From contig MTMI02000007.1 in assembly GCA_002011165.2 (NCBI GenBank), forward strand, positions 159,970 through 223,969: DNA of 64,000 nucleotides, given 5' to 3'. Origin of the DNA: Candidatus Mnemosynella biddleae (GTDB taxonomy: Archaea; Halobacteriota; Archaeoglobi; Mnemosynellales; Mnemosynellaceae). Each line of letters opens with the position of its first letter. Position 1 is the first letter of the stretch. Shown here one piece after another: positions 46,074 through 59,067 of this stretch. Below the pieces are notes generated by a model that searched no databases, was not told where the DNA came from, and was given only the letters and a program-made list of their open reading frames with translations. Both the position numbers and the translations under genes were made by a program.

Positions 46074-46925
46074 TTAATAATTTCTTCTCTCCTCCTTTGA
46101 CCAACACTCATTTGGACATTTGGAACAAAAGCCTTTTCTCCAACATTCATTCCAACAAGGCACTCTGTGTTTATATGCGTTAGAACAGCAGGCAGATCTG
46201 AACACTATCAGATCTAACTCTTTTTTAGCGTAATCCTCTAAAATTTTCTTTCCCTGGAAGTAACTCTTCGTCAATCTCTCTATTCCGAGCTTCTTCTTTA
46301 CGTTTTTCGTCAATCTTAGGTTTCCAAGAATTATCCTATCTGTATATTCTGCAATTCTTTCCAGACCTCTTTTATAGAGCTCTTCATCAATCATCAGAAG
46401 TATAGGCCTGAGAAAAACCGCTCCATGGACCTCTTTGCAAAATTCAAGTCTTTCTGAAATGGAAGGTCTTTTCGGTTCAAACTTCTTGCATAGCTCATCT
46501 AGGGGCACACACATGGAGATTAAAGTATCAACTTTTTTGAGCTCTCTCACAAGAGTGTGGTTGACCTCTTTTGTTGAGAGCTGGACAGGATTTCTGAGCA
46601 GATAAATCTCCTTGAGAAGCTCTTTTGTGTATTCTGGAAAGTCAAGAGGCTCACAAACGGATCCAATCGCAATGAAACTCTCTTCTATTTTAAATCGGGG
46701 ATTAAGAAGAAGGGAATATACAAGAGCTTTTGGTGAGAGTTCCGCGGGTCTTGGTTTTGATTCAACATAACAGTAGAGACAGCTTCCAGAACATCCTCTG
46801 GCTACATGAATTGTAAATCCACAAGGTCTCGGAGCTCTTTTCGCATGCTCATCTATCTTAGCTTTTTCTATCTCCTTCTCACTCAGCTGACTCTCGTAGA
46901 ATCTCTTTAATTTTTTCTTTTCCAC
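46074..46925 (-). CDS. radical SAM protein with a Cys-rich C-terminal extension, function unknown
   Basis: CX3CX2C motif GCSGSCLYCY. The C-terminal cluster is CCSNAYKHRVPCWNECWRKGFCSKCPNECW. Confidence 0.7.
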   Translation of the reverse strand: MEKKKLKRFYESQLSEKEIEKAKIDEHAKRAPRPCGFTIHVARGCSGSCLYCYVESKPRPAELSPKALVYSLLLNPRFKIEESFIAIGSVCEPLDFPEYTKELLKEIYLLRNPVQLSTKEVNHTLVRELKKVDTLISMCVPLDELCKKFEPKRPSISERLEFCKEVHGAVFLRPILLMIDEELYKRGLERIAEYTDRIILGNLRLTKNVKKKLGIERLTKSYFQGKKILEDYAKKELDLIVFRSACCSNAYKHRVPCWNECWRKGFCSKCPNECWSKEERRNY

Positions 46926-51976: not shown

Positions 51977-52741
51977 TTAGAAGAGAATTTTCTCTGTGTC
52001 CTCTCCTCCGTAAAAGATTTCCTGAATTCCGTCGTAAATGTCCTCCATTCCGAAAAATGTTTCTGAAGAAACAGGAGAGATCGGTTGAGAGATTCCAGAT
52101 TCTTTGAGAGCATAGAAAAGCTCCAGATTGAGTCCCTCGTTTTGAAGCTCCTCATAAAGAAGATCGGGATTTATGCTCCAGTCAATGATCTTCTGCACTT
52201 CTTCTTGAGAAAGAAGGTCGGATTTGGATAAAACTGGTATTTGTGGCAATTTCAGTCTGAAGGTTGCAGATGCACACATGAAGAGAAGGCTGATAAACCC
52301 AGAAGGTGTTTTTGAGACCACAGGGTCAAAGAGAAAAACCATCACGCTTTTTGATCTGTCAAGCATATCAATGAGTATTTCACTGCTCCGTCTGAGTGTG
52401 AAGAGCTCCATTTGACCGGGAGTATCTATGAGCACGTATTCGCAATTATAACTTTCTATCTCTTCTTTTATTTCCTCCGCCCTCAAACTTATGAGGTCTG
52501 AGCCAATGATCTGAGCCCCGTTTGGTCCAACTCCGTAGTTATCCATAATATCTTCAAGCGTAAACCACTCTCTTATGTCCACATCCGGATTATAAGGCAT
52601 TGTTTCAGCTCCCGGATCGAGATTCACTGTTATACAGTGAAGTCTTTTGATATCAAGCCACTCAGAGAAGGTTTTTGTGAGGCAACTCTTTCCGCTTCCC
52701 GCAGTTCCAATAAAGTAAACGTAAATACGATCAAGAGTCAT
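51977..52741 (-). CDS. GPN-loop GTPase
   Basis: Walker A GTAGSGKS, the GPN motif YGVGPNGA, and DTPGQMELF. Confidence 0.85.
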   Translation of the reverse strand: MTLDRIYVYFIGTAGSGKSCLTKTFSEWLDIKRLHCITVNLDPGAETMPYNPDVDIREWFTLEDIMDNYGVGPNGAQIIGSDLISLRAEEIKEEIESYNCEYVLIDTPGQMELFTLRRSSEILIDMLDRSKSVMVFLFDPVVSKTPSGFISLLFMCASATFRLKLPQIPVLSKSDLLSQEEVQKIIDWSINPDLLYEELQNEGLNLELFYALKESGISQPISPVSSETFFGMEDIYDGIQEIFYGGEDTEKILF

Positions 52742-52794
52742 CAATGAAGAATAGTGGTGCTTCTAAATATCACTTACCATTGTGGGTGATACTC

Positions 52795-53610
52795 ATGATC
52801 AAAGTTCTCATAGTTGGAGTTCTATCCGAGAACTCCGGGAAAACAACTCTTGCCGAAGCCCTAATTTCGGAAGCAATAGAAAAAGGAGTGGACGTTGGAG
52901 TCTCCAAACCTTTCTGTTCAACCAATGGCTGGTATCATTATGAAGTCATTGTAAGGAGCGCTGAATTCGGTCTCCTTCTCGGAAGAGATATTCAGAGACT
53001 CCACAATGTTGCGAGAAGCATCGAGTCAGTAGAGCTGGAGAATCCCGTATGTGTCTTGGCAATGCCTTTGGATTTAGAGAAACTTGAGTGGAATCTTATG
53101 CAAAATCTTTCGATGAATCAAATCGCAATGATCAGAGTGAGTGGAAAGGAGACCAAGCATTATGTTGTGAACTCGAATTTGGAAAGGTTTACAGGAATTC
53201 TCAGAAAAGAGGTTGAAAGACTCTCGAAAGCTCTAAAAGGCGAAGTTCAGGAAATTGAAATTGAGGACGCCGAGGAAATCCTCAGAAAGGCTAGAGACCT
53301 CTCAAATGAAGCTCTTAAAGAGATCAAAAGGAGGCACGATATGGTAGTCATCGAGTCGTTCAGCAATGTCGCATCTCCCAACACGGAATCGCTTGATTCA
53401 GACATCATCATAGCTGTCTCACCAGGAAAAGCAGTGATATATGAAGGAGAAAAATATCGAAGGGCAGTTGACATTCTCCTTGATTTCAAAGATCCATGGG
53501 AGATAACAACCGATGGAGTACTGAGGCTTCTGAAACCACTCAGGACAATTGAACTCAAGCCCAAGGAACTTGGTAATAAGGGAATTCTCAAAGAAATATT
53601 CAATTTTTGA
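52795..53610 (+). CDS. DTB-synthetase-like (BioD/CobQ/Pta-N type) P-loop NTPase, function unknown
   Basis: Deviant Walker A VGVLSENSGKTTLAEAL, a Walker-B-like MVVIESF. I place the start at the internal ATG (MIKVLIVG). Confidence 0.5.
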   Translation: MIKVLIVGVLSENSGKTTLAEALISEAIEKGVDVGVSKPFCSTNGWYHYEVIVRSAEFGLLLGRDIQRLHNVARSIESVELENPVCVLAMPLDLEKLEWNLMQNLSMNQIAMIRVSGKETKHYVVNSNLERFTGILRKEVERLSKALKGEVQEIEIEDAEEILRKARDLSNEALKEIKRRHDMVVIESFSNVASPNTESLDSDIIIAVSPGKAVIYEGEKYRRAVDILLDFKDPWEITTDGVLRLLKPLRTIELKPKELGNKGILKEIFNF

Positions 53611-53678: not shown

Positions 53679-53692
53679 TTTTTATTAAAAAA
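53679..53692 (+). promoter_or_regulatory. candidate TATA box (TTTTTATTAAAAAA) for the Rcl-QueF-like / radical SAM operon
   Basis: It lies about 21-34 nt upstream of the ATG at 53713, which suggests a leaderless or very short-leader transcript. Confidence 0.35.
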
Positions 53693-53712: not shown

Positions 53713-54435
53713 ATGAAGATCATGATCTGCGGGTCCTTGGGATATGGAGGAAAGGAGAGAATAAAAGAGCTTCAGGAGCTCCTCAGAGAGAATGGATTCG
53801 AAGTCATAGATCAGCTGAAGGATATGGATTACTGCGAAATTCAGGATTTCAGAGATAAATTAGAGTTGTGCAGGGAAATAGTGAGAAGAGACCTTGAAAA
53901 AGTAAGCGAAGCAGATGTCATCATAATCATCTCAGATTTTCCAAGCTTTGGAGCGAGTGTAGAGGCATTTCAGGCTTCTATGAGTGGAAAGAGGGTTATT
54001 GCATATTCTGAAGGGAAAGCAAGATCCCCTTGGCCTCTTGCAATGGCTCAGGAGGTATGTGAAAGCAAAGAAGAACTTTTGGAGGCTCTGAGGAGAGAAG
54101 AGATGAGAAAGATAGGGAAAATCCCAAATTTTTTTGGAGAACATGAAGCTGAGTTCGTATATGAGGGGTTCAAATGCATCTGTCCTGTTACGGGACTGGA
54201 GGATAGGGCGAAGATAACCATCAGATATATACCAGAGAGATGGCTCATCGAATACGAATCGCTGGATAAATACTTCAGAAGCTTTGAAAAAAGAGCAATT
54301 CATCATGAAGCTGTGGTGGAGGAAATCTTTAGAGATGTGAAGGAGGAAATCTCACCGAGAGAGCTCGAAGTTAAAGGGGAGTTCGAAGAGAGAAGTGGAG
54401 TTAAAGCAGTAATAAAAAAGAGGTGGAAAAGATGA
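53713..54435 (+). CDS. fusion protein: N-terminal nucleoside 2-deoxyribosyltransferase/Rcl(DNPH1)-like domain plus C-terminal QueF-like T-fold domain
   Basis: N-domain: IMICGSLGYGG and DLEKVSEADVIIIISDFPSFGASVEAFQASMSGKRVIAY, which parallels the Rcl sequence IYFCGSIRGG ... ADVVVAEVTQPSLGVGYELGRA. C-domain: FKCICPVTGLEDRAKITIRYIPERWLIEYESLDKYFRSFEKRAIHHE, which parallels the QueF sequence [46 protein letters not shown]. Confidence 0.7.
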   Translation: MKIMICGSLGYGGKERIKELQELLRENGFEVIDQLKDMDYCEIQDFRDKLELCREIVRRDLEKVSEADVIIIISDFPSFGASVEAFQASMSGKRVIAYSEGKARSPWPLAMAQEVCESKEELLEALRREEMRKIGKIPNFFGEHEAEFVYEGFKCICPVTGLEDRAKITIRYIPERWLIEYESLDKYFRSFEKRAIHHEAVVEEIFRDVKEEISPRELEVKGEFEERSGVKAVIKKRWKR

Positions 54436-55358
54436 GCTTTGAACCTTCTTATCTTCATCTTTTTGAGAGTGGGGAACTTCGAAGAAGGGTAGATGAGCTG
54501 TATTCTATTTTAGAATCATGTGAACTATGCCCGAGGAAATGCAGAGTTAATAGGATGAAGGGGGAAAGAGGTTATTGTGGTGCAGATGCAAATCTCATGG
54601 TCTCAAGCTATTTTTCGCACTTCGGAGAAGAGGATGTGCTTGTGGGAAGAAATGGATCAGGAACAATATTTTTGACAAATTGCAATCTCCTTTGCGTATA
54701 TTGTCAGAACTACGACATAAGTCATCTTGGTGTTGGAGAGATCGTCTCTGAGGATAGAGTGGCTGAGATGATGCTCCATCTTCAATCTCTTGGATGTCAT
54801 AACATCAATTTTGTGACCCCAACACACTACACACCTCAGTTAGTTCGAGCGATAGAAATAGCGGTTGAAAGAGGATTGAAGCTCCCAATTGTCTGGAATT
54901 GTAGCGGATACGAAAACGTTGAACTCATCAAAATGCTCGAAGGAATAGTTGACATATATATGCCTGACATGAAATATGGTTCTTCTGAACCTGCGAAGAA
55001 GTATTCTAATGCTCCAGATTATTTCGAGAGATGCAAAGAGGCTGTTAAGGAAATGCACCGCCAGGTTGGAGATCTGAAGGTGAAGGAAGGAATTGCATAT
55101 AGAGGCCTTCTTATCAGACATCTCGTTTTACCAAATGATCTCGCGGGAAGTGAGAGAATTCTCAAGTTTATAGCGCAGGAGATTTCGAAGGACACCTATG
55201 TTAATATCATGGCTCAATACAGGCCAGAAGGAGAGGCATATAAGTATGAAGAGCTGAGTAGAAGAATCACAAGAGATGAGTTCATGAAAGTTCTTGAGCT
55301 TGCGAAAGATCTCGGGTTAACAAGAGGATTAGACAGAAGATATCTCTTTTTCCTCTGA
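54432..55358 (+). CDS. PflX-type (COG1313-like) radical SAM enzyme, function unknown
   Basis: ATGA overlap with the upstream stop, with AGGTGG 8 nt upstream. N-terminal CELCPRKCRVNR..GERGYCG, and radical SAM CNLLCVYC. Confidence 0.75.
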   Translation: MSFEPSYLHLFESGELRRRVDELYSILESCELCPRKCRVNRMKGERGYCGADANLMVSSYFSHFGEEDVLVGRNGSGTIFLTNCNLLCVYCQNYDISHLGVGEIVSEDRVAEMMLHLQSLGCHNINFVTPTHYTPQLVRAIEIAVERGLKLPIVWNCSGYENVELIKMLEGIVDIYMPDMKYGSSEPAKKYSNAPDYFERCKEAVKEMHRQVGDLKVKEGIAYRGLLIRHLVLPNDLAGSERILKFIAQEISKDTYVNIMAQYRPEGEAYKYEELSRRITRDEFMKVLELAKDLGLTRGLDRRYLFFL

Positions 55359-55841
55359 TGCAAATAGCTTTTTAATTTGCGCCTCACAATTCTTGCAGAG
55401 TTTACTCGGTTTTTTCATGGCTTCGGCGAAGGTGTTGGAGAATTTCATTACGCAGTTGTTGGAGCAGTGCTCCAGACTTAAGAGGTGACCAACTTCATGA
55501 ATTGATTCTTTCGAGATCATTTCCAGAGAGGGCAATCGGTAAGTTGAAACTATCGCCTCTCTTTCGTAAGCTACTCCAAAGACAAAGTTCATACCAACTA
55601 TGAAAATGTCGCAGTTTACAAGCCAGAGGGCAAGATCTTTGGTCTTATTCTTCGAAAGGAACTCAAGAAGAAGTGATGCATCGTATTGGCTTCTTTCTTC
55701 ATCTTTCGCTCCAATTGGCGGTTTCATCTCTGTTCCGAGAGTCACTTTAAGGGGATATGTTCTCTGAAGAGCTTTTCGAACTGCACTCAGCACTTCTTCA
55801 CTGAAACTCTCATAAAAGATCTCGAGAGTAAGCATCCGCAA
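55329..55841 (-). CDS. amzA: archaemetzincin (zinc metalloprotease AmzA)
   Basis: HEVGHLLSLEHCSNNCVM followed by CKNC. This is the HExxHxxGxxHC plus Cys4 pattern of archaemetzincins. Confidence 0.85.
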   Translation of the reverse strand: MRMLTLEIFYESFSEEVLSAVRKALQRTYPLKVTLGTEMKPPIGAKDEERSQYDASLLLEFLSKNKTKDLALWLVNCDIFIVGMNFVFGVAYEREAIVSTYRLPSLEMISKESIHEVGHLLSLEHCSNNCVMKFSNTFAEAMKKPSKLCKNCEAQIKKLFASEEKEISSV

Positions 55842-55875: not shown

Positions 55876-57000
55876 TTGATGGAGTTCATGGCAACAACAA
55901 CACAGGGGATGGAAGATGTCACTGCAGAAGAGATTAAAGAATTAACAGGAAGGAGAGTTGAGAGAAGGAAGGGGAGGGTCGAATTTGAAGGCTCTTTGAA
56001 AGAGATGTATAGAGTTAATCTCAGGGCAAGATGCGTGAACAGAGTTTTTCTGATACTTCAGAAAAGAAAAGCGGAGACATTGAAGGATATCTACAGGATC
56101 TCCAGAGAGATAGATTACATGTGGATAATCTCCGAGAATCAGAGCTTTGCAGTGAGAGCGACAAGAGTTGGGGAACACCCTTTCACGAGTCCTGAAATAG
56201 CTTCAGAGGTGGGAAGAGCGATAATAGAGAGCTTCAGAGATTCAACGGGAAAAAGGCTGAAGGTAAATCTGGAGGAGCCCGATGTTGAGATTTATGCTCT
56301 TCTCGTAGATGATGACTTCGTTTTGAGCGTTAATACGACTGGAGAATCACTGCACAAAAGAGGCTACAGAAAATATCAGCATCATGCACCTATAAGACCG
56401 ACTCTTGCGTCCTGTCTTCTGAGATACAGTGGCTGGAAACCGAGAAATTCTCTTCTCGATCCCATGTGTGGAAGCGGAACAATCCCGATTGAAGCTGTTT
56501 TAATGGCTAAAAAGTGTATGAATCACAGAGATTTTCTCTTTAAGAAACTTAAAATTCATGATAAGGAGATTTTTGAAAAAGAGAAGAAAATAGAGGAAAG
56601 AGGAGAGAATCCAAAAAGAATTGTAGCTATGGAGATATCTCCAAAGCATTTAGAAGGAGCAATTGAAAATGCAGAAAGAGCAGGAGTCTTAGATTTCATA
56701 GACTTTATCGAAGGCGACGCAAAAAGAATGGAGCAATATCTGGATCTCTCTCCCGAATTCTTGGTGGTGAATCCTCCGTATGGAATAAGATCTTCGAGAA
56801 AAAGGGCAATAAGAGATCTTTACGAAGGTTTTCTTAAATCTGCAGAAAGAATATCCGGTGAATCCCTTTTAGTCGTCATAACAGCAGCTGAAAAGGAATT
56901 CAAAGAATCTCTGAAAAAAATCAATGGAGAAGTCATTGAGGAGAGATACGTTCTTTACGGAGATCTGCCAACGAAAGTCTTCAAAATCATTCTGGGGTGA
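55876..57000 (+). CDS. THUMP-domain RNA (guanine-N2) methyltransferase (Trm14/UPF0020 type)
   Basis: A ferredoxin-like plus THUMP N-terminal half, then SAM motifs LDPMCGSGTIPIEA and VVNPPYG. Confidence 0.8.
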   Translation: MMEFMATTTQGMEDVTAEEIKELTGRRVERRKGRVEFEGSLKEMYRVNLRARCVNRVFLILQKRKAETLKDIYRISREIDYMWIISENQSFAVRATRVGEHPFTSPEIASEVGRAIIESFRDSTGKRLKVNLEEPDVEIYALLVDDDFVLSVNTTGESLHKRGYRKYQHHAPIRPTLASCLLRYSGWKPRNSLLDPMCGSGTIPIEAVLMAKKCMNHRDFLFKKLKIHDKEIFEKEKKIEERGENPKRIVAMEISPKHLEGAIENAERAGVLDFIDFIEGDAKRMEQYLDLSPEFLVVNPPYGIRSSRKRAIRDLYEGFLKSAERISGESLLVVITAAEKEFKESLKKINGEVIEERYVLYGDLPTKVFKIILG

Positions 57001-57006
57001 CATTCT

Positions 57007-57639
57007 TTGAGACTTGATTTGGTACTGGTTAGGAGAGGATGTTTCAGTTCAAGACAAAAAGCTAAGGAGAGTATAAAGAGAGGACTTGTGAGAGTAGAAG
57101 GAAAAATCATAACAAAACCGTCATTTGACGTGGAGTTCGGTGCAGAGATAGAAGTGCTCTTTGAGGAGAGACCAAAGGGGTACTGGAAGCTGAAAGAGAT
57201 TGATGAAAGTCTTGAGATCTTCAGAGGCGATGAAATCGTCTTGGATCTCGGGAGCTCGGCAGGAGGCTTCCTTCTATATTCGAGCGAGAAGGCAAGATTC
57301 GTTTATGGAATAGAGTTCAGTAGAGAATTCGAAAGTGAGTTGAGGAGGATTGAAAAAGAGAAGAAAAATGTGAAAGTATTCATAGGAGATGCGTTTATAT
57401 TCGATATATCAATTCTACCGCATTTTGACCTAATTTTGAATGATTTGACTCTTCCTTTTTCGTCTTCCATGAAAGCTCTGAAGAGATTTCTTCCAAAGCT
57501 GAAAGATAATGGAAAAGTACTCTTCGTTCACAAACTCGGGGATGATGAAGCTCCAGAGTTTAAGGATTTTGAAATTCTCAAGGAAATGATCTCAAAAGAA
57601 AAAAAGGAGAAATATTATCTGTTGAGAAAAAGGATTTGA
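57007..57639 (+). CDS. S4-domain plus FtsJ-like 2'-O-ribose methyltransferase (TlyA-like)
   Basis: S4 domain RLDLVLVRRG..SRQKAKESIKRGLVRVEG, and the SAM-binding motif VLDLGSSAGGF. Confidence 0.75.
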   Translation: MRLDLVLVRRGCFSSRQKAKESIKRGLVRVEGKIITKPSFDVEFGAEIEVLFEERPKGYWKLKEIDESLEIFRGDEIVLDLGSSAGGFLLYSSEKARFVYGIEFSREFESELRRIEKEKKNVKVFIGDAFIFDISILPHFDLILNDLTLPFSSSMKALKRFLPKLKDNGKVLFVHKLGDDEAPEFKDFEILKEMISKEKKEKYYLLRKRI

Positions 57640-58191: not shown

Positions 58192-59067
58192 ATGATGAGG
58201 AGATTAAATTTTATGTTCATGGGTGTGATAAGACCTTTTGATCCTTGGAAAGGCGAGCTTTGCAGTTGTCCCGAAAAATATTCTTTAAATCCTTATACTG
58301 GTTGTCCTCATCAGTGTCTCTACTGTTACTCTTCTTCATACATTCCAAGATTTTTCGAGTGCAGAGTTAAGAAAGATCTGTTGAAGCATGTGAGGAGAGA
58401 CTGTGAGAAACTTCCCGAAAATGCGCTTATTTCGATGAGCAACACAAGCGATCCATATCCTCCAGTGGAGAAAGAGTATGAACTTACGAGAAGATGCCTT
58501 GAAATCTTCCGTGAGTATGATTTCAGAGTTCTTGTAATAACTAAGGGAGATGTTATTCTGAGAGATGTTGATCTTCTCTCGGATATGAGATCTGCTGTTA
58601 CCATAACAGTGACAACGTTAAAATACGATGAAATCCTCGAGAGGGGAGCTCCAAGAGCTCTGAGGAGAATTGAGGTTTTGAAGGAGCTGAAAGATTCCGG
58701 AATTCCAGTTGGATTAAGATTCGATCCTCTAATACCTTTTTTGAACGATAAAGAAATTGAGGAGATAATCTCTAAAACAAGCTTTGTCGATCATGTTGTC
58801 TCGAGTACTTTCAAGCCGAGGAGAGATAGCTGGAAAAGGTTTTCATTAGCTTTTCCAGATGTCTCAAAAAAGCTAAAGGATCTTTATTTTTCAAAGGGTG
58901 AGAGAATTCAAAGAGCATTATATCTTCCGAGAGAAATGAGAAGAGAACTCATGAAAAAAGTGAAAGAGGTTTGTGAAAGCTACGGAATACCTTTCGCATC
59001 ATGTCGAGAAGGATTTCCAGAGCTACAGAGTTCCAAGAGCTGTGACGGGAGTCATTTGATAAGATGA
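58192..59067 (+). CDS. radical SAM protein, SplB/COG1533-like (DNA repair photolyase-like family)
   Basis: LNPYTGCPHQCLYCY (CX3CX2C) and a partial TIM barrel of about 290 aa. Confidence 0.75.
   Translation: MMRRLNFMFMGVIRPFDPWKGELCSCPEKYSLNPYTGCPHQCLYCYSSSYIPRFFECRVKKDLLKHVRRDCEKLPENALISMSNTSDPYPPVEKEYELTRRCLEIFREYDFRVLVITKGDVILRDVDLLSDMRSAVTITVTTLKYDEILERGAPRALRRIEVLKELKDSGIPVGLRFDPLIPFLNDKEIEEIISKTSFVDHVVSSTFKPRRDSWKRFSLAFPDVSKKLKDLYFSKGERIQRALYLPREMRRELMKKVKEVCESYGIPFASCREGFPELQSSKSCDGSHLIR

Follow-up and report, generated by a model that had tools for sequence, protein, structure and literature searches.

What is the likely role of a protein in which an N-glycosidase-like domain of the DNPH1/Rcl type is joined to a domain of the 7-deazaguanine enzyme QueF? 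Such a fusion is encoded in a 64,000-nucleotide stretch of contig MTMI02000007.1 from Candidatus Mnemosynella biddleae (assembly GCA_002011165.2), hereafter called the window, where it overlaps a downstream gene coding for a radical SAM enzyme. The locus is laid out as follows, in positions of the window:

53680..53692, + strand: TATA-like A/T-rich box TTTTATTAAAAAA, read from the sequence, 21-33 nt 5' of the fusion ATG
53713..54435, + strand: fusion gene (ORF), 240 aa, coding for an N-terminal DNPH1/NDT-like and a C-terminal unimodular QueF-type T-fold domain
54420..54426, + strand: Shine-Dalgarno-like sequence GAGGTGG, 5 nt 5' of the radical SAM ATG
54423, + strand: alternative GTG start of the radical SAM ORF, from the ORF list
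54432..55358, + strand: radical SAM gene, PflX-type (K04070-like), 308 aa counted from the ATG

The A/T-rich box is a candidate archaeal promoter for a two-gene unit made of the fusion and the radical SAM gene. The coordinates and the GAGGTGG sequence agree with the earlier observation, made in a first-pass annotation of this DNA, that the second gene starts inside the stop codon of the first: the radical SAM ATG (54432-54434) and the fusion TGA (54433-54435) overlap as ATGA. No 7-deazaguanine-related gene was found among ten window ORFs picked by size (six of them the window's largest), and neither arcS nor tgtA was present among the window ORFs scanned.

A DNPH1/Rcl-like domain is indeed fused to a QueF-type domain, and the arrangement is conserved. 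The two-domain protein recognized in the first-pass annotation recurs in 54 homologous protein clusters, with 36-65% identity to the fusion, and is carried by about 35 genomes, counted at species level, within the Archaeoglobi and Jordarchaeia. All genomic contexts of the fusion are housekeeping-like regions, in which PADLOC gave no defence matches, and no viral copies of the fusion were found. Genes tgtA, arcS and queCDE adjoin the fusion in none of the loci (flanks of 10 kb or less). A DNPH1-like/QueF fusion was not found described in the searchable literature, in line with the first reading, which knew of no described pathway joining an N-glycosidase to a 7-deazaguanine-binding domain. Automatic annotation at NCBI and JGI names these proteins 'preQ(1) synthase' or '7-cyano-7-deazaguanine reductase'.

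The N-terminal half of the protein is defined as follows:

53713..54105, + strand: N-terminal domain, residues 1-131, NDT/DNPH1/Rcl fold

This domain carries the motifs CGSLGYGG (residues 6-13), D60, PSFGASVE (residues 77-84, including S78 and E84) and SPWP (residues 105-108). The Pfam family PF05014 matches the window protein at 23.7-25.5 bits, under the cutoff of 28.8; among the fusion clusters about half have a hit to it, as do nearly all stand-alone relatives. Profile and structural comparisons agree on the NDT/Rcl-like identity first read from the letters: Rcl/DNPH1 accounted for 12 of the 12 best matches of the domain profile against the PDB, and the best 50 PDB matches retrieved by Foldseek with the domain model (pLDDT 93.6; 93.3, with a pTM of 0.85, for the AF2 model of the full-length fusion) were all NDT, DNPH1, Rcl or BcmB, with a TM of up to 0.78. 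The top Foldseek matches are true transferases of the NDT family. The fold is shared, at a TM of 0.6-0.78, with DNPH1/Rcl (2'-deoxynucleoside 5'-phosphate N-hydrolase) and with the NDT family (MilB, BcmB, 2'-deoxyribosyltransferases).

In DNPH1, an Asp acts as general acid, a Glu as nucleophile and a Ser in phosphate binding (PMC10603095). Profile alignment to Rcl places D60, E84 and S78 of the fusion on Asp69, Glu93 and Ser87 (rat numbering), E84 being the Glu that had been assigned to the Rcl catalytic position. Both the Glu nucleophile (E104 in human, E93 in rat) and the Asp general acid (D80, D69) consequently have an equivalent in the fusion, and D60, E84 and S78 are invariant in an alignment of 20 N-domain sequences. 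The 5'-phosphate pocket (Ser98/Ser87 and a G-S-x-x-G-G loop), which distinguishes DNPH1-type enzymes from nucleoside-specific NDTs (PMC10603095), is also present, S78 in PSFG corresponding to PSLG and C6-GSLGYG-G13 to CGSIRGG. The CGS-x-GG phosphate loop, the general-acid Asp and the PS-x-G-x-x-x-E motif with its nucleophile Glu are thus common to the N-domain and DNPH1/Rcl. Unlike DNPH1, the family shows DFR and SPWP motifs that are its own and is joined to a QueF domain. The hydrolytic Glu55 and His56 and the 2'-deoxy-selecting Tyr24 of DNPH1 are not kept: they align with Gln34 (invariant), Leu35 and Ile4 or Val, respectively, and around residues 30-50 the alignment is gapped and less certain. 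Glu55 of DNPH1 drives hydrolysis (PMC10603095), so an invariant Gln34 at that position, if the gapped stretch is correctly aligned, would favour transfer over hydrolysis. In a divergent subgroup (P0054, P0291, L036, L038 and L039) the PSFG...E motif is lost and the QueF site is kept, which suggests that N-glycosidase activity is not obligatory for the fusion family.

The C-terminal half comprises the following features:

54115..54432, + strand: C-terminal QueF-type T-fold domain, residues ~135-240 (PF14489, TIGR03139, phmmer, Foldseek)
54175..54204, + strand: active-site loop C155-I-C157-P-V-T-G-L-E-D164, from alignment, family-invariant
54250..54273, + strand: degenerate NADPH motif E180-Y-E-S-L-D-K-Y187, aligned to E78-S-K80-S-L-K83-L-Y85
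54301..54309, + strand: H197-H198-E199, aligned with F-H96-E97 of B. subtilis QueF, family-invariant

A search of this half returned PF14489 at 68.2 bits (cutoff 27.3; 7.6e-19) and, as a borderline match, the QueF-II equivalog TIGR03139 at 87.0 bits against a cutoff of 86.9, which upholds the QueF core proposed for it. With phmmer, B. subtilis QueF (4f8b) was matched at 5e-11 and the archaeal QueF-L (5jyx) at 2e-4. The unimodular QueF of B. subtilis (YkvM, 4F8B), an NADPH-dependent preQ0 reductase, has the T-fold in common with the fusion (Foldseek 2.5e-12, rmsd 1.0, 31% identity), the identity to QueF-L being about 20%. Catalytic residues of QueF are Cys55, Asp62 and Glu97 in B. subtilis numbering (PMC5372742). 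Their counterparts, by alignment, are C157, the thioimide Cys that had been read in CPVTGLED; D164; and E199, equivalent to the preQ0 anchor Glu97 and part of the HHE correctly noticed in place of FHE. All three are invariant among 31 family members. Residue C155 is a 'Cys53-type' backdoor Cys, as in a QueF variant described previously (PMC5372742). The fusion and unimodular QueF thus share the thioimide Cys, the Asp, Glu78, the His-Glu97 pair and the 'Cys53' backdoor variant, and differ in that the fusion has archaeal hosts and a 131-residue DNPH1-like domain in the place of the N-terminal arm.

They differ above all in the motif E(S/L)K(S/A)hK(L/Y)(Y/F/W), which is used in the field to call NADPH-dependent reductases (PMC10516641, PMC5372742). 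The first-pass annotation had taken ESLDKYF as a version of this motif, but its register was off by two residues; the correct reading is E180-Y-E182-S-L-D185-K-Y187, so that an intact NADPH site is not to be assumed. In the window protein E182 and D185 stand where QueF has K80 and K83, and the Glu78 equivalent, E180, is kept; the residues EYESL do not vary in the family. The pattern EYESL(D/K/E)xYF is found in 39 of 40 fusion loci, the Lys80 position being Glu in every aligned locus and the Lys83 position mostly Asp, with Lys83 retained in about a quarter of the members. By comparison, E(S/L)KS(L/F)K.., with both Lys residues, is found in each of the 46 bacterial QueFs compared, which share the CxC loop. 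The NADPH-binding motif that defines QueF is therefore not intact in the fusion, which makes 'preQ(1) synthase' a probable misnomer for the fusion family.

Gene neighbourhoods provide a further source of evidence. The radical SAM gene is physically coupled to the fusion in the window and is not its conserved partner. Its product matches PF04055 (4.8e-15) and its translation contains a CX3CX2C motif and, upstream, C-x2-C-x3-C...C, the extra N-terminal CxxCxxxC reported earlier; these cysteines, together with close annotated homologues, place it in the PflX-type family (KEGG K04070-like). More than 8000 homologues exist, with about 70% identity even in Bathyarchaeia and Aenigmatarchaeota, and those 70-74% identical are labelled 'putative pyruvate formate lyase activating enzyme' by JGI. 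Adjacency to the fusion is found only in the window and, in the same gene order, in Ca. Mnemosynella bozhongmuii (L007), a locus that is syntenic across the whole region and thus not independent evidence for a link. No radical SAM neighbour lies within 10 kb of the fusion in 33 of the 34 other species loci, and in GCA_046483365.1 the fusion (L038) and the radical SAM orthologue (L098) are on different contigs. Examined in five further contexts, radical SAM homologues had unrelated neighbours, with no QueF or ArcS domain among them. The first-pass annotation had coupled the two genes into a module and had set conservation of the pair in relatives as a test, which the pair fails. It had also left open a kinship with RaSEA; compared by models and names, the protein matches no RaSEA family among NCBIfam models at E up to 1, and homologues 77-79% identical are named 'radical SAM protein' even though a RaSEA product name exists.

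The conserved partner of the fusion in relatives is instead a YpgQ-type HD protein together with a small transporter. The HD protein is found in 15 of 35 species loci, either encoded <=52 bp downstream of the fusion or fused to it in frame (P0038, P0040, L030 and L032; 406-417 aa), and a half-MFS transporter, usually after the HD gene, in 14 of the 35. The 15 HD-bearing loci are phylogenetically close. No HD or MFS homologues were detected within the 64-kb window, so the argument from these partners is drawn from Archaeoglobaceae relatives only. With matches to B. subtilis YpgQ (5dqv, 9e-30) and to YedJ (4e-24), the HD protein resembles these (d)NTP pyrophosphohydrolases, the archaeal version being shorter (170 aa). 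YpgQ itself depends on Mn and, among (d)NTPs, prefers dGTP and dATP (PMC8177086). Its products belong to the class of compounds on which DNPH1-type enzymes act. The HD partner fits a role in 7-deazapurine-nucleotide metabolism.

From the domain identities, the conservation and loss of the named residues, the neighbourhood statistics and the in-frame HD fusions, we infer a substrate, a direction for each step and a physiological role. We tentatively favour the view that the fusion is a bifunctional enzyme of 7-deazaguanine salvage or house-cleaning, acting at the nucleotide level rather than on tRNA and without the radical SAM enzyme. In relatives, the YpgQ-type HD pyrophosphohydrolase would first turn a (d)NTP bearing 7-deazaguanine into its (d)NMP. 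The DNPH1/Rcl-like domain would bind the nucleoside 5'-monophosphate and release the base by cleaving the N-glycosidic bond. In this reaction Glu84 would form a covalent intermediate, Asp60 would serve as general acid and Ser78 would contact the phosphate. Once free, the base (either preQ0 or G+, the base of archaeosine) would pass to the QueF domain for thioimide chemistry at Cys157, assisted by Asp164 and Glu199. Lacking the canonical NADPH site, the QueF domain would not reduce preQ0 to preQ1 but would either capture preQ0 or convert between the amidine and the nitrile, and preQ0 could then be reused by ArcTGT. The half-MFS from the same operon in relatives may carry the base across the membrane. 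The net effect would be to recycle 7-deazaguanine from RNA turnover, or to clear stray 7-deazaguanine nucleotides from the pool.

Such a role would be analogous to that of DNPH1 on hmdUMP, with its 'modified-nucleotide sanitiser' logic (PMC10603095), and to that of eukaryotic Qng1 (DUF2419), which salvages queuine from queuosine-5'-monophosphate and thereby frees a 7-deazaguanine base for reuse by TGT (PMC9881137). The likeness to Qng1 is one of function only, since its fold is non-homologous, its hosts are eukaryotic and it has no nitrile/amidine chemistry. Archaea salvage preQ0, and the free G+ base deamidates to preQ0 (PMC5699537). Somewhat doubtful, though conceivable, is the broader notion of a nucleotide-level 7-deazaguanine branch in Archaeoglobi and Jordarchaeia, in which N-glycosidic and Cys-thioimide (7-cyano/7-amidino) chemistry would be combined in one polypeptide. 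Outcomes that would fit this branch are recycling of archaeosine from tRNA breakdown, in which G+-MP would yield the G+ base and this in turn preQ0, opposite in direction to the QueF-L reaction, or base exchange on (d)GMP to make 7-deazaguanine nucleotides.

An ordinary preQ1 synthase, that is, an NADPH-dependent preQ0 reductase as in the automatic annotation of NCBI and JGI, is unlikely but survives best among the other explanations. The N-terminal Rossmann-like domain would then be an accessory, or an alternative dinucleotide-cofactor module offsetting the lost lysines. The TIGR03139 score just above its cutoff, B. subtilis QueF as best PDB relative, the presence of all equivalents of Cys55, Asp62, Glu78, His96 and Glu97, the database names and the divergent subgroup that keeps the QueF site and not the N-domain catalytic motif all speak for it; being nearer to true QueF than to QueF-L, and with Glu78 kept, the QueF domain could still be a reductase. 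Against this stand the Glu found always at K80 and the frequent loss of K83, set beside 46 of 46 CxC-loop bacterial QueFs with both lysines. Nor does this explanation account for the fusion to a YpgQ-type HD protein or for the invariance of the three DNPH1-type residues (Asp, Glu, Ser), and we know of no preQ1 consumer in Archaea. Sequences devoid of the motif have moreover been left out of QueF in the literature (PMC5372742).

Less probable still is an anabolic base exchange, in which the NDT-like domain would replace guanine in GMP or dGMP, formed by the YpgQ-type HD protein from GTP or dGTP, with a 7-deazaguanine base delivered or modified by the QueF domain, yielding 7-deazaguanine nucleotides for nucleic acid or a metabolite. 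The membership of true transferases in the NDT family, their place as best Foldseek matches and the preference of YpgQ for dGTP are consistent with it, as is the invariant Gln at the position of DNPH1 Glu55, E55Q in DNPH1 being known to trap the glycosyl-enzyme intermediate (PMC10603095), and some phages have been suggested to make modified dG at the nucleotide level (PMC6884629). However, the Gln34 alignment is gapped and of low confidence, no viral copies were found, and no kinase, polymerase, DpdA/TGT or biosynthetic cluster lies near the fusion, whose contexts are housekeeping-like. To our knowledge, neither 7-deazaguanine DNA nor the free nucleotide has been reported from the lineages that bear the fusion.

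There is little likelihood that the fusion is an archaeosine synthase of the QueF-L type, converting preQ0-tRNA to G+-tRNA with an N-terminal domain that helps to hold the nucleotide or the tRNA. Like QueF-L of P. calidifontis (5JYX/5K0P), which performs no NADPH-dependent reduction, the fusion combines an archaeal host with a T-fold, predicted Cys-thioimide chemistry, the Cys and Asp, a Glu at the Lys80 position and loss of the canonical NADPH motif (PMC5485725, PMC5699537). In QueF-L the NADPH site is removed by a tightly wound pentamer; in the fusion, seen here as a monomer model, the motif lysines are lost and Glu78 is kept. QueF-L is a single 109-aa domain with neither N-glycosidase domain nor HD partner, acting on preQ0-tRNA in Crenarchaeota without ArcS, whereas the fusion is much closer to QueF by score and identity and is hosted by Archaeoglobi, arcS being described as ubiquitous in Euryarchaeota generally (PMC5485725). 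The acidic to neutral charge of the protein (net -7) is weak evidence against a tRNA substrate, and HD pyrophosphohydrolase and transporter partners would make no sense for a tRNA enzyme.

Least probable by far is the module proposed in the first-pass annotation, in which the fusion and a RaSEA-like radical SAM enzyme would build archaeosine or a new 7-deazaguanine derivative: the ATGA overlap and Shine-Dalgarno-like sequence indicate co-expression in the window genome, the gene order recurs in Ca. Mnemosynella bozhongmuii and ArcS-RaSEA, with its radical SAM beside a 7-deazaguanine enzyme, is a chemical precedent (PMC11298593), but the ArcS half of that pair is a paralogue of TGT rather than a QueF, the radical SAM protein of the window has neither match to RaSEA models nor RaSEA naming, and this vast family is conserved at about 70% in lineages without the fusion, in unrelated neighbourhoods. 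The module is largely refuted by the lack of a conserved neighbourhood, and the gene overlap is not to be taken as a functional link.

Archaeosine is present in almost every archaeal tRNA. We know of no described route that deals with the archaeosine nucleotide when tRNA is degraded, or that excludes 7-deazaguanine nucleotides from archaeal nucleotide pools. By joining a DNPH1-type N-glycosidase domain to a QueF-type preQ0 domain, the fusion provides a concrete candidate for this missing step. If salvage or base exchange is indeed its function, it would represent a new enzyme activity and the first archaeal 7-deazaguanine salvage enzyme to be described.

The 240-aa protein of the window, in which an N-terminal DNPH1/Rcl-like (NDT) domain is joined to a C-terminal QueF-type domain, is followed directly by a PflX-type radical SAM gene. 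The stop/start overlap of the two genes seen in the first-pass annotation is confirmed, and this overlap, together with a TATA-like box, a GAGGTGG element and a convergent archaemetzincin gene, makes the pair look like a two-gene transcription unit in this genome.

Features of the window
46074-46925, minus strand: further radical SAM ORF
52744-53610, plus strand: P-loop protein, 288 aa, weak MobB/BioD-like matches only
53680-53692: TATA-like box, A/T-rich, 5' of the fusion ATG, read from the sequence
53713-54435, plus strand: fusion gene, ORF of 240 aa
54420-54426: GAGGTGG
54423 (GTG) or 54432 (ATG): start of the radical SAM ORF, the latter being the choice of public gene callers
54432-54435: ATGA, radical SAM ATG over fusion TGA
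55329-55841: archaemetzincin (M54) gene, convergent, closing the unit
55876-57000, plus strand: THUMP-domain RNA methyltransferase (RlmL_1st + THUMP + UPF0020), beyond the M54 gene
57007-57639, plus strand: S4 + FtsJ-type methyltransferase, after the THUMP methyltransferase gene
58192-59067, plus strand: further radical SAM ORF of PA0069/Rv2578c (spore-photoproduct-lyase-like) type, score well under family cutoffs

In the nearest public genome, that of Candidatus Mnemosynella bozhongmuii (Archaeoglobi; locus L007), the fusion is 65% and the radical SAM protein 84% identical. Ten window ORFs picked by size (six of them the window's largest) and near neighbours are housekeeping genes (ThrRS, GatE, PPDK, PCNA and others); tgtA, arcS and queC are not among them. 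The P-loop protein, to which no family could be assigned, is kept in the related loci L007 (57% identity) and L009 (42%), and its gene and a divergent GPN-loop GTPase gene (51977-52744) begin on one shared base. The THUMP and FtsJ-type genes 3' of the archaemetzincin gene make up a small neighbourhood of RNA-modification genes, in synteny with L007.

Full-length fusion proteins fall into 54 clusters at 90% identity and occur in about 35 species-representative genomes, all of them from Archaeoglobi (Archaeoglobaceae, Mnemosynella) or the Asgard class Jordarchaeia. Where source databases name the protein, it is called 'preQ(1) synthase' or '7-cyano-7-deazaguanine reductase'. A literature search found no description of a DNPH1-like/QueF architecture, and the N-glycosidase/QueF fusion first proposed from the sequence is real, rare and undescribed. 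A viral or defence-system origin was rejected, since the viral contig collection held no relatives and PADLOC profiles gave no meaningful match. A divergent subgroup (36-43% identity) lacks the PSFG...E catalytic motif of the N-domain and has gained an insertion after CG; CICPVTG, EYESL and HHE are retained. Its neighbours include SRP54, RNase HII and Hdr-like genes. Near the fusion of one Archaeoglobaceae MAG lies an 814-aa RadA-like ORF (L010:5736-8180, minus strand) with an apparent intein-like insertion, seen in translation only.

Features in relatives
L036:4660-5364, L038:4333-5022 and L039:10001-10744: divergent subgroup (proteins P0054 and P0291)
L011:10743-11797; also L008, L009, L012, L013, L016-L018, L022, L023, L027, L028, L030, L032 and L040: HD/half-MFS arrangement
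P0177-P0185 and P0323-P0440: stand-alone N-domain relatives, not in the window
L005:3777-7818: Jordarchaeales cluster of two radical SAM genes, a DUF7714 gene and an LplA-like ligase, upstream of the fusion

Residues ~135-240 match Pfam QueF at 68.2 bits (cutoff 27.3) and exceed the TIGR03139 cutoff by 0.1 bit. Among solved structures, B. subtilis QueF is the best relative of this domain (phmmer, 5e-11; Foldseek, 2.5e-12, rmsd 1.0 Å, 31% identity), and Foldseek with the whole-protein model returned T-fold matches only. By alignment, C157, D164 and H198-E199 correspond to Cys55, Asp62 and His96-Glu97 of the B. subtilis enzyme and are invariant across 31 family members, which bears out the QueF-type domain and thioimide Cys noted at first reading. 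A second invariant cysteine, C155, equals the 'Cys53' backdoor cysteine found in 22% of unimodular QueFs (PMC5372742). The QueF motif itself had been read out of register: the counterpart of B. subtilis E78-S-K80-S-L-K83-L-Y85 is E180-Y-E-S-L-D-K-Y187. This segment has the form EYESL(D/K/E)xYF in 39 of the 40 fusion genes from fetched loci, against E(S/L)KS(L/F)K.. in all 46 bacterial stand-alone QueFs with the same CxCPVTG loop. The latter type of motif is the NADPH-binding signature, part of the QueF definition (PMC5372742), and also serves to predict reductase activity (PMC10516641). With the NADPH motif not matched and the Cys, Asp and Glu kept, the C-terminal domain is, judged by its sequence, a QueF-family T-fold that has the residues for thioimide chemistry intact and fails the NADPH-motif test. 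The same mismatch makes it unlikely that the fusion is a true preQ1 synthase whose extra domain is accessory, a reading favoured by the closer relationship to QueF than to QueF-L (QueF-Like archaeosine synthase) and by the narrowly reached TIGR03139 cutoff.

The N-terminal domain remains under the cutoff of Pfam Nuc_deoxyrib_tr (23.7-25.5 vs 28.8 bits). With a profile from 20 family N-domains, the 12 best PDB sequences were all Rcl/DNPH1 (best E = 0.0026), and a Foldseek search with a separate AlphaFold model of the domain (pLDDT 93.6) gave a top 50 made up solely of NDT, DNPH1, Rcl or BcmB; the highest TM was 0.78, and identity to DNPH1 was 22-24%. In the HMM alignment, D60, S78 and E84, all invariant in the 20 sequences, match Asp69, Ser87 and Glu93 of rat Rcl (human D80, S98, E104), which in DNPH1/Rcl are the general acid, the phosphate ligand and the covalent nucleophile, respectively (PMC10603095). 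Profile, model fold and E84 alignment thus agree on the Rcl/DNPH1-like domain with a catalytic Glu that had been recognised by eye. The CGSLGYGG loop is the counterpart of the Rcl/DNPH1 phosphate loop CGSIRGG, whereas DNPH1 Tyr24 is Ile or Val in the fusion family and Glu55, needed for hydrolysis of the glycosyl-enzyme intermediate, is replaced by an invariant Gln34 in a stretch where the alignment is gapped. This Gln would suit an anabolic base-exchange enzyme, which we consider rather improbable.

A large family of stand-alone N-domains (about 130-140 aa, >550 clusters) is found in Thaumarchaeota (Nitrososphaeraceae), Bathyarchaeia and Aenigmarchaeota and has its own DFR and (S/T)PWP motifs. 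The N-domain is occasionally fused to a thioredoxin (P0286) or a dNMP-kinase-like domain (P0293). No QueF, HD or 7-deazaguanine gene was found near stand-alone genes in three genomic contexts, so the family yields no independent link to 7-deazaguanine and was rejected as a source of split versions of the fusion.

Clustering of the neighbours of all fusion loci revealed an apparent three-gene operon in Archaeoglobaceae, headed by the fusion; a gene for a 170-aa HD-domain protein comes next, within <=52 bp, ahead of one for a half-MFS protein of about 180 aa, a 6-TM protein whose start overlaps the HD stop by 4 bp. Of the 35 fusion loci, 15 have the HD protein and 14 the MFS protein. L030, L032, P0038 and P0040 carry the HD domain as an in-frame C-terminal extension of the fusion, giving proteins of 406-417 aa. 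The HD protein matches E. coli YedJ and B. subtilis YpgQ (5dqv, 9e-30), a (d)NTP pyrophosphohydrolase that depends on Mn and has a preference for dGTP and dATP (PMC8177086). Read together, an NTP-to-NMP enzyme, a domain of NMP N-glycosidase type and one of preQ0-binding type suggest a putative 7-deazaguanine-nucleotide pathway. The argument from these partners is borrowed from relatives, as the window's 64 kb hold no HD or MFS homologue.

The fusion probably acts on 7-deazapurine nucleotides, and the mechanism we tentatively consider most likely is an NTP-to-NMP-to-base route on 7-deazaguanine nucleotides. The HD partner would convert a 7-deazaguanine NTP to the NMP, Glu84 and Asp60 would split this into free base and ribose-5-phosphate, and the base would be taken up by Cys157 as a thioimide, independently of NADPH. 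The QueF domain could capture preQ0 or turn the archaeosine base into preQ0 for reuse by ArcTGT, and the half-MFS protein may handle base traffic. Precedents are the sanitation of hmdUMP by DNPH1 (PMC10603095) and the release of queuine from queuosine-5'-monophosphate by Qng1 (PMC9881137); archaea also salvage preQ0, and free archaeosine (G+) base deamidates to preQ0 (reviewed in PMC5699537). Against this route, QueF is a closer relative of the C-terminal domain than QueF-L is, Glu78 is retained, roughly one member in four still has Lys83, Gln34 may tip the reaction from hydrolysis towards transfer, and the divergent subgroup has lost the N-domain motif while keeping the QueF site. A QueF-L-type tRNA archaeosine synthase, an enzyme without NADPH-dependent reduction (PMC10516641; PMC5699537), is a poor candidate for the fusion, as QueF-L is more distant from its C-terminal domain than QueF is (2e-4 vs 5e-11; about 20% vs 31% identity).

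A module coupling the fusion to the radical SAM enzyme, as proposed in the first-pass annotation, is very improbable: in tblastn searches that covered all fusion loci with flanks of up to 10 kb on each side, the gene turned up only in L007, and GCA_046483365.1 carries the fusion (L038) and the radical SAM orthologue (L098) on separate contigs. Since synteny there extends over the entire block (DHDPS, GPN GTPase, P-loop protein, fusion, radical SAM, M54 peptidase, THUMP methyltransferase, FtsJ-like), L007 is not independent evidence. The radical SAM family has >8000 matches better than 1e-10, with about 70% identity even in Bathyarchaeia and Aenigmatarchaeota, and no QueF, ArcS or TGT genes were found in five other contexts. 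With adjacency confined to L007 and the other contexts unrelated, the neighbourhood is not conserved, the very outcome that the proposal had named as counting against it. The suggested analogy to RaSEA, the radical SAM partner of ArcS in archaeosine synthesis, was judged from NCBIfam models and NCBI naming and is not supported either: no RaSEA model matched, and close homologues are plainly named 'radical SAM protein' (JGI: 'putative pyruvate formate lyase activating enzyme'), although a RaSEA product name exists. A PDB sequence search with the radical SAM protein gave nothing useful. The two other radical SAM ORFs of the window were assigned to the PA0069/Rv2578c type and are not RaSEA-like. 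Those of Jordarchaeia, 2-3 genes upstream of the fusion, had no tblastn match to the window's gene and were rejected as its counterparts; since they sit beside an LplA-like ligase, their cluster probably serves LipS1/LipS2-type lipoate synthesis.

The current database name of the fusion is probably wrong. Together with this probable misnaming, the interest of the fusion lies mainly in its being a testable candidate for the recycling of archaeal 7-deazaguanine or archaeosine nucleotides.
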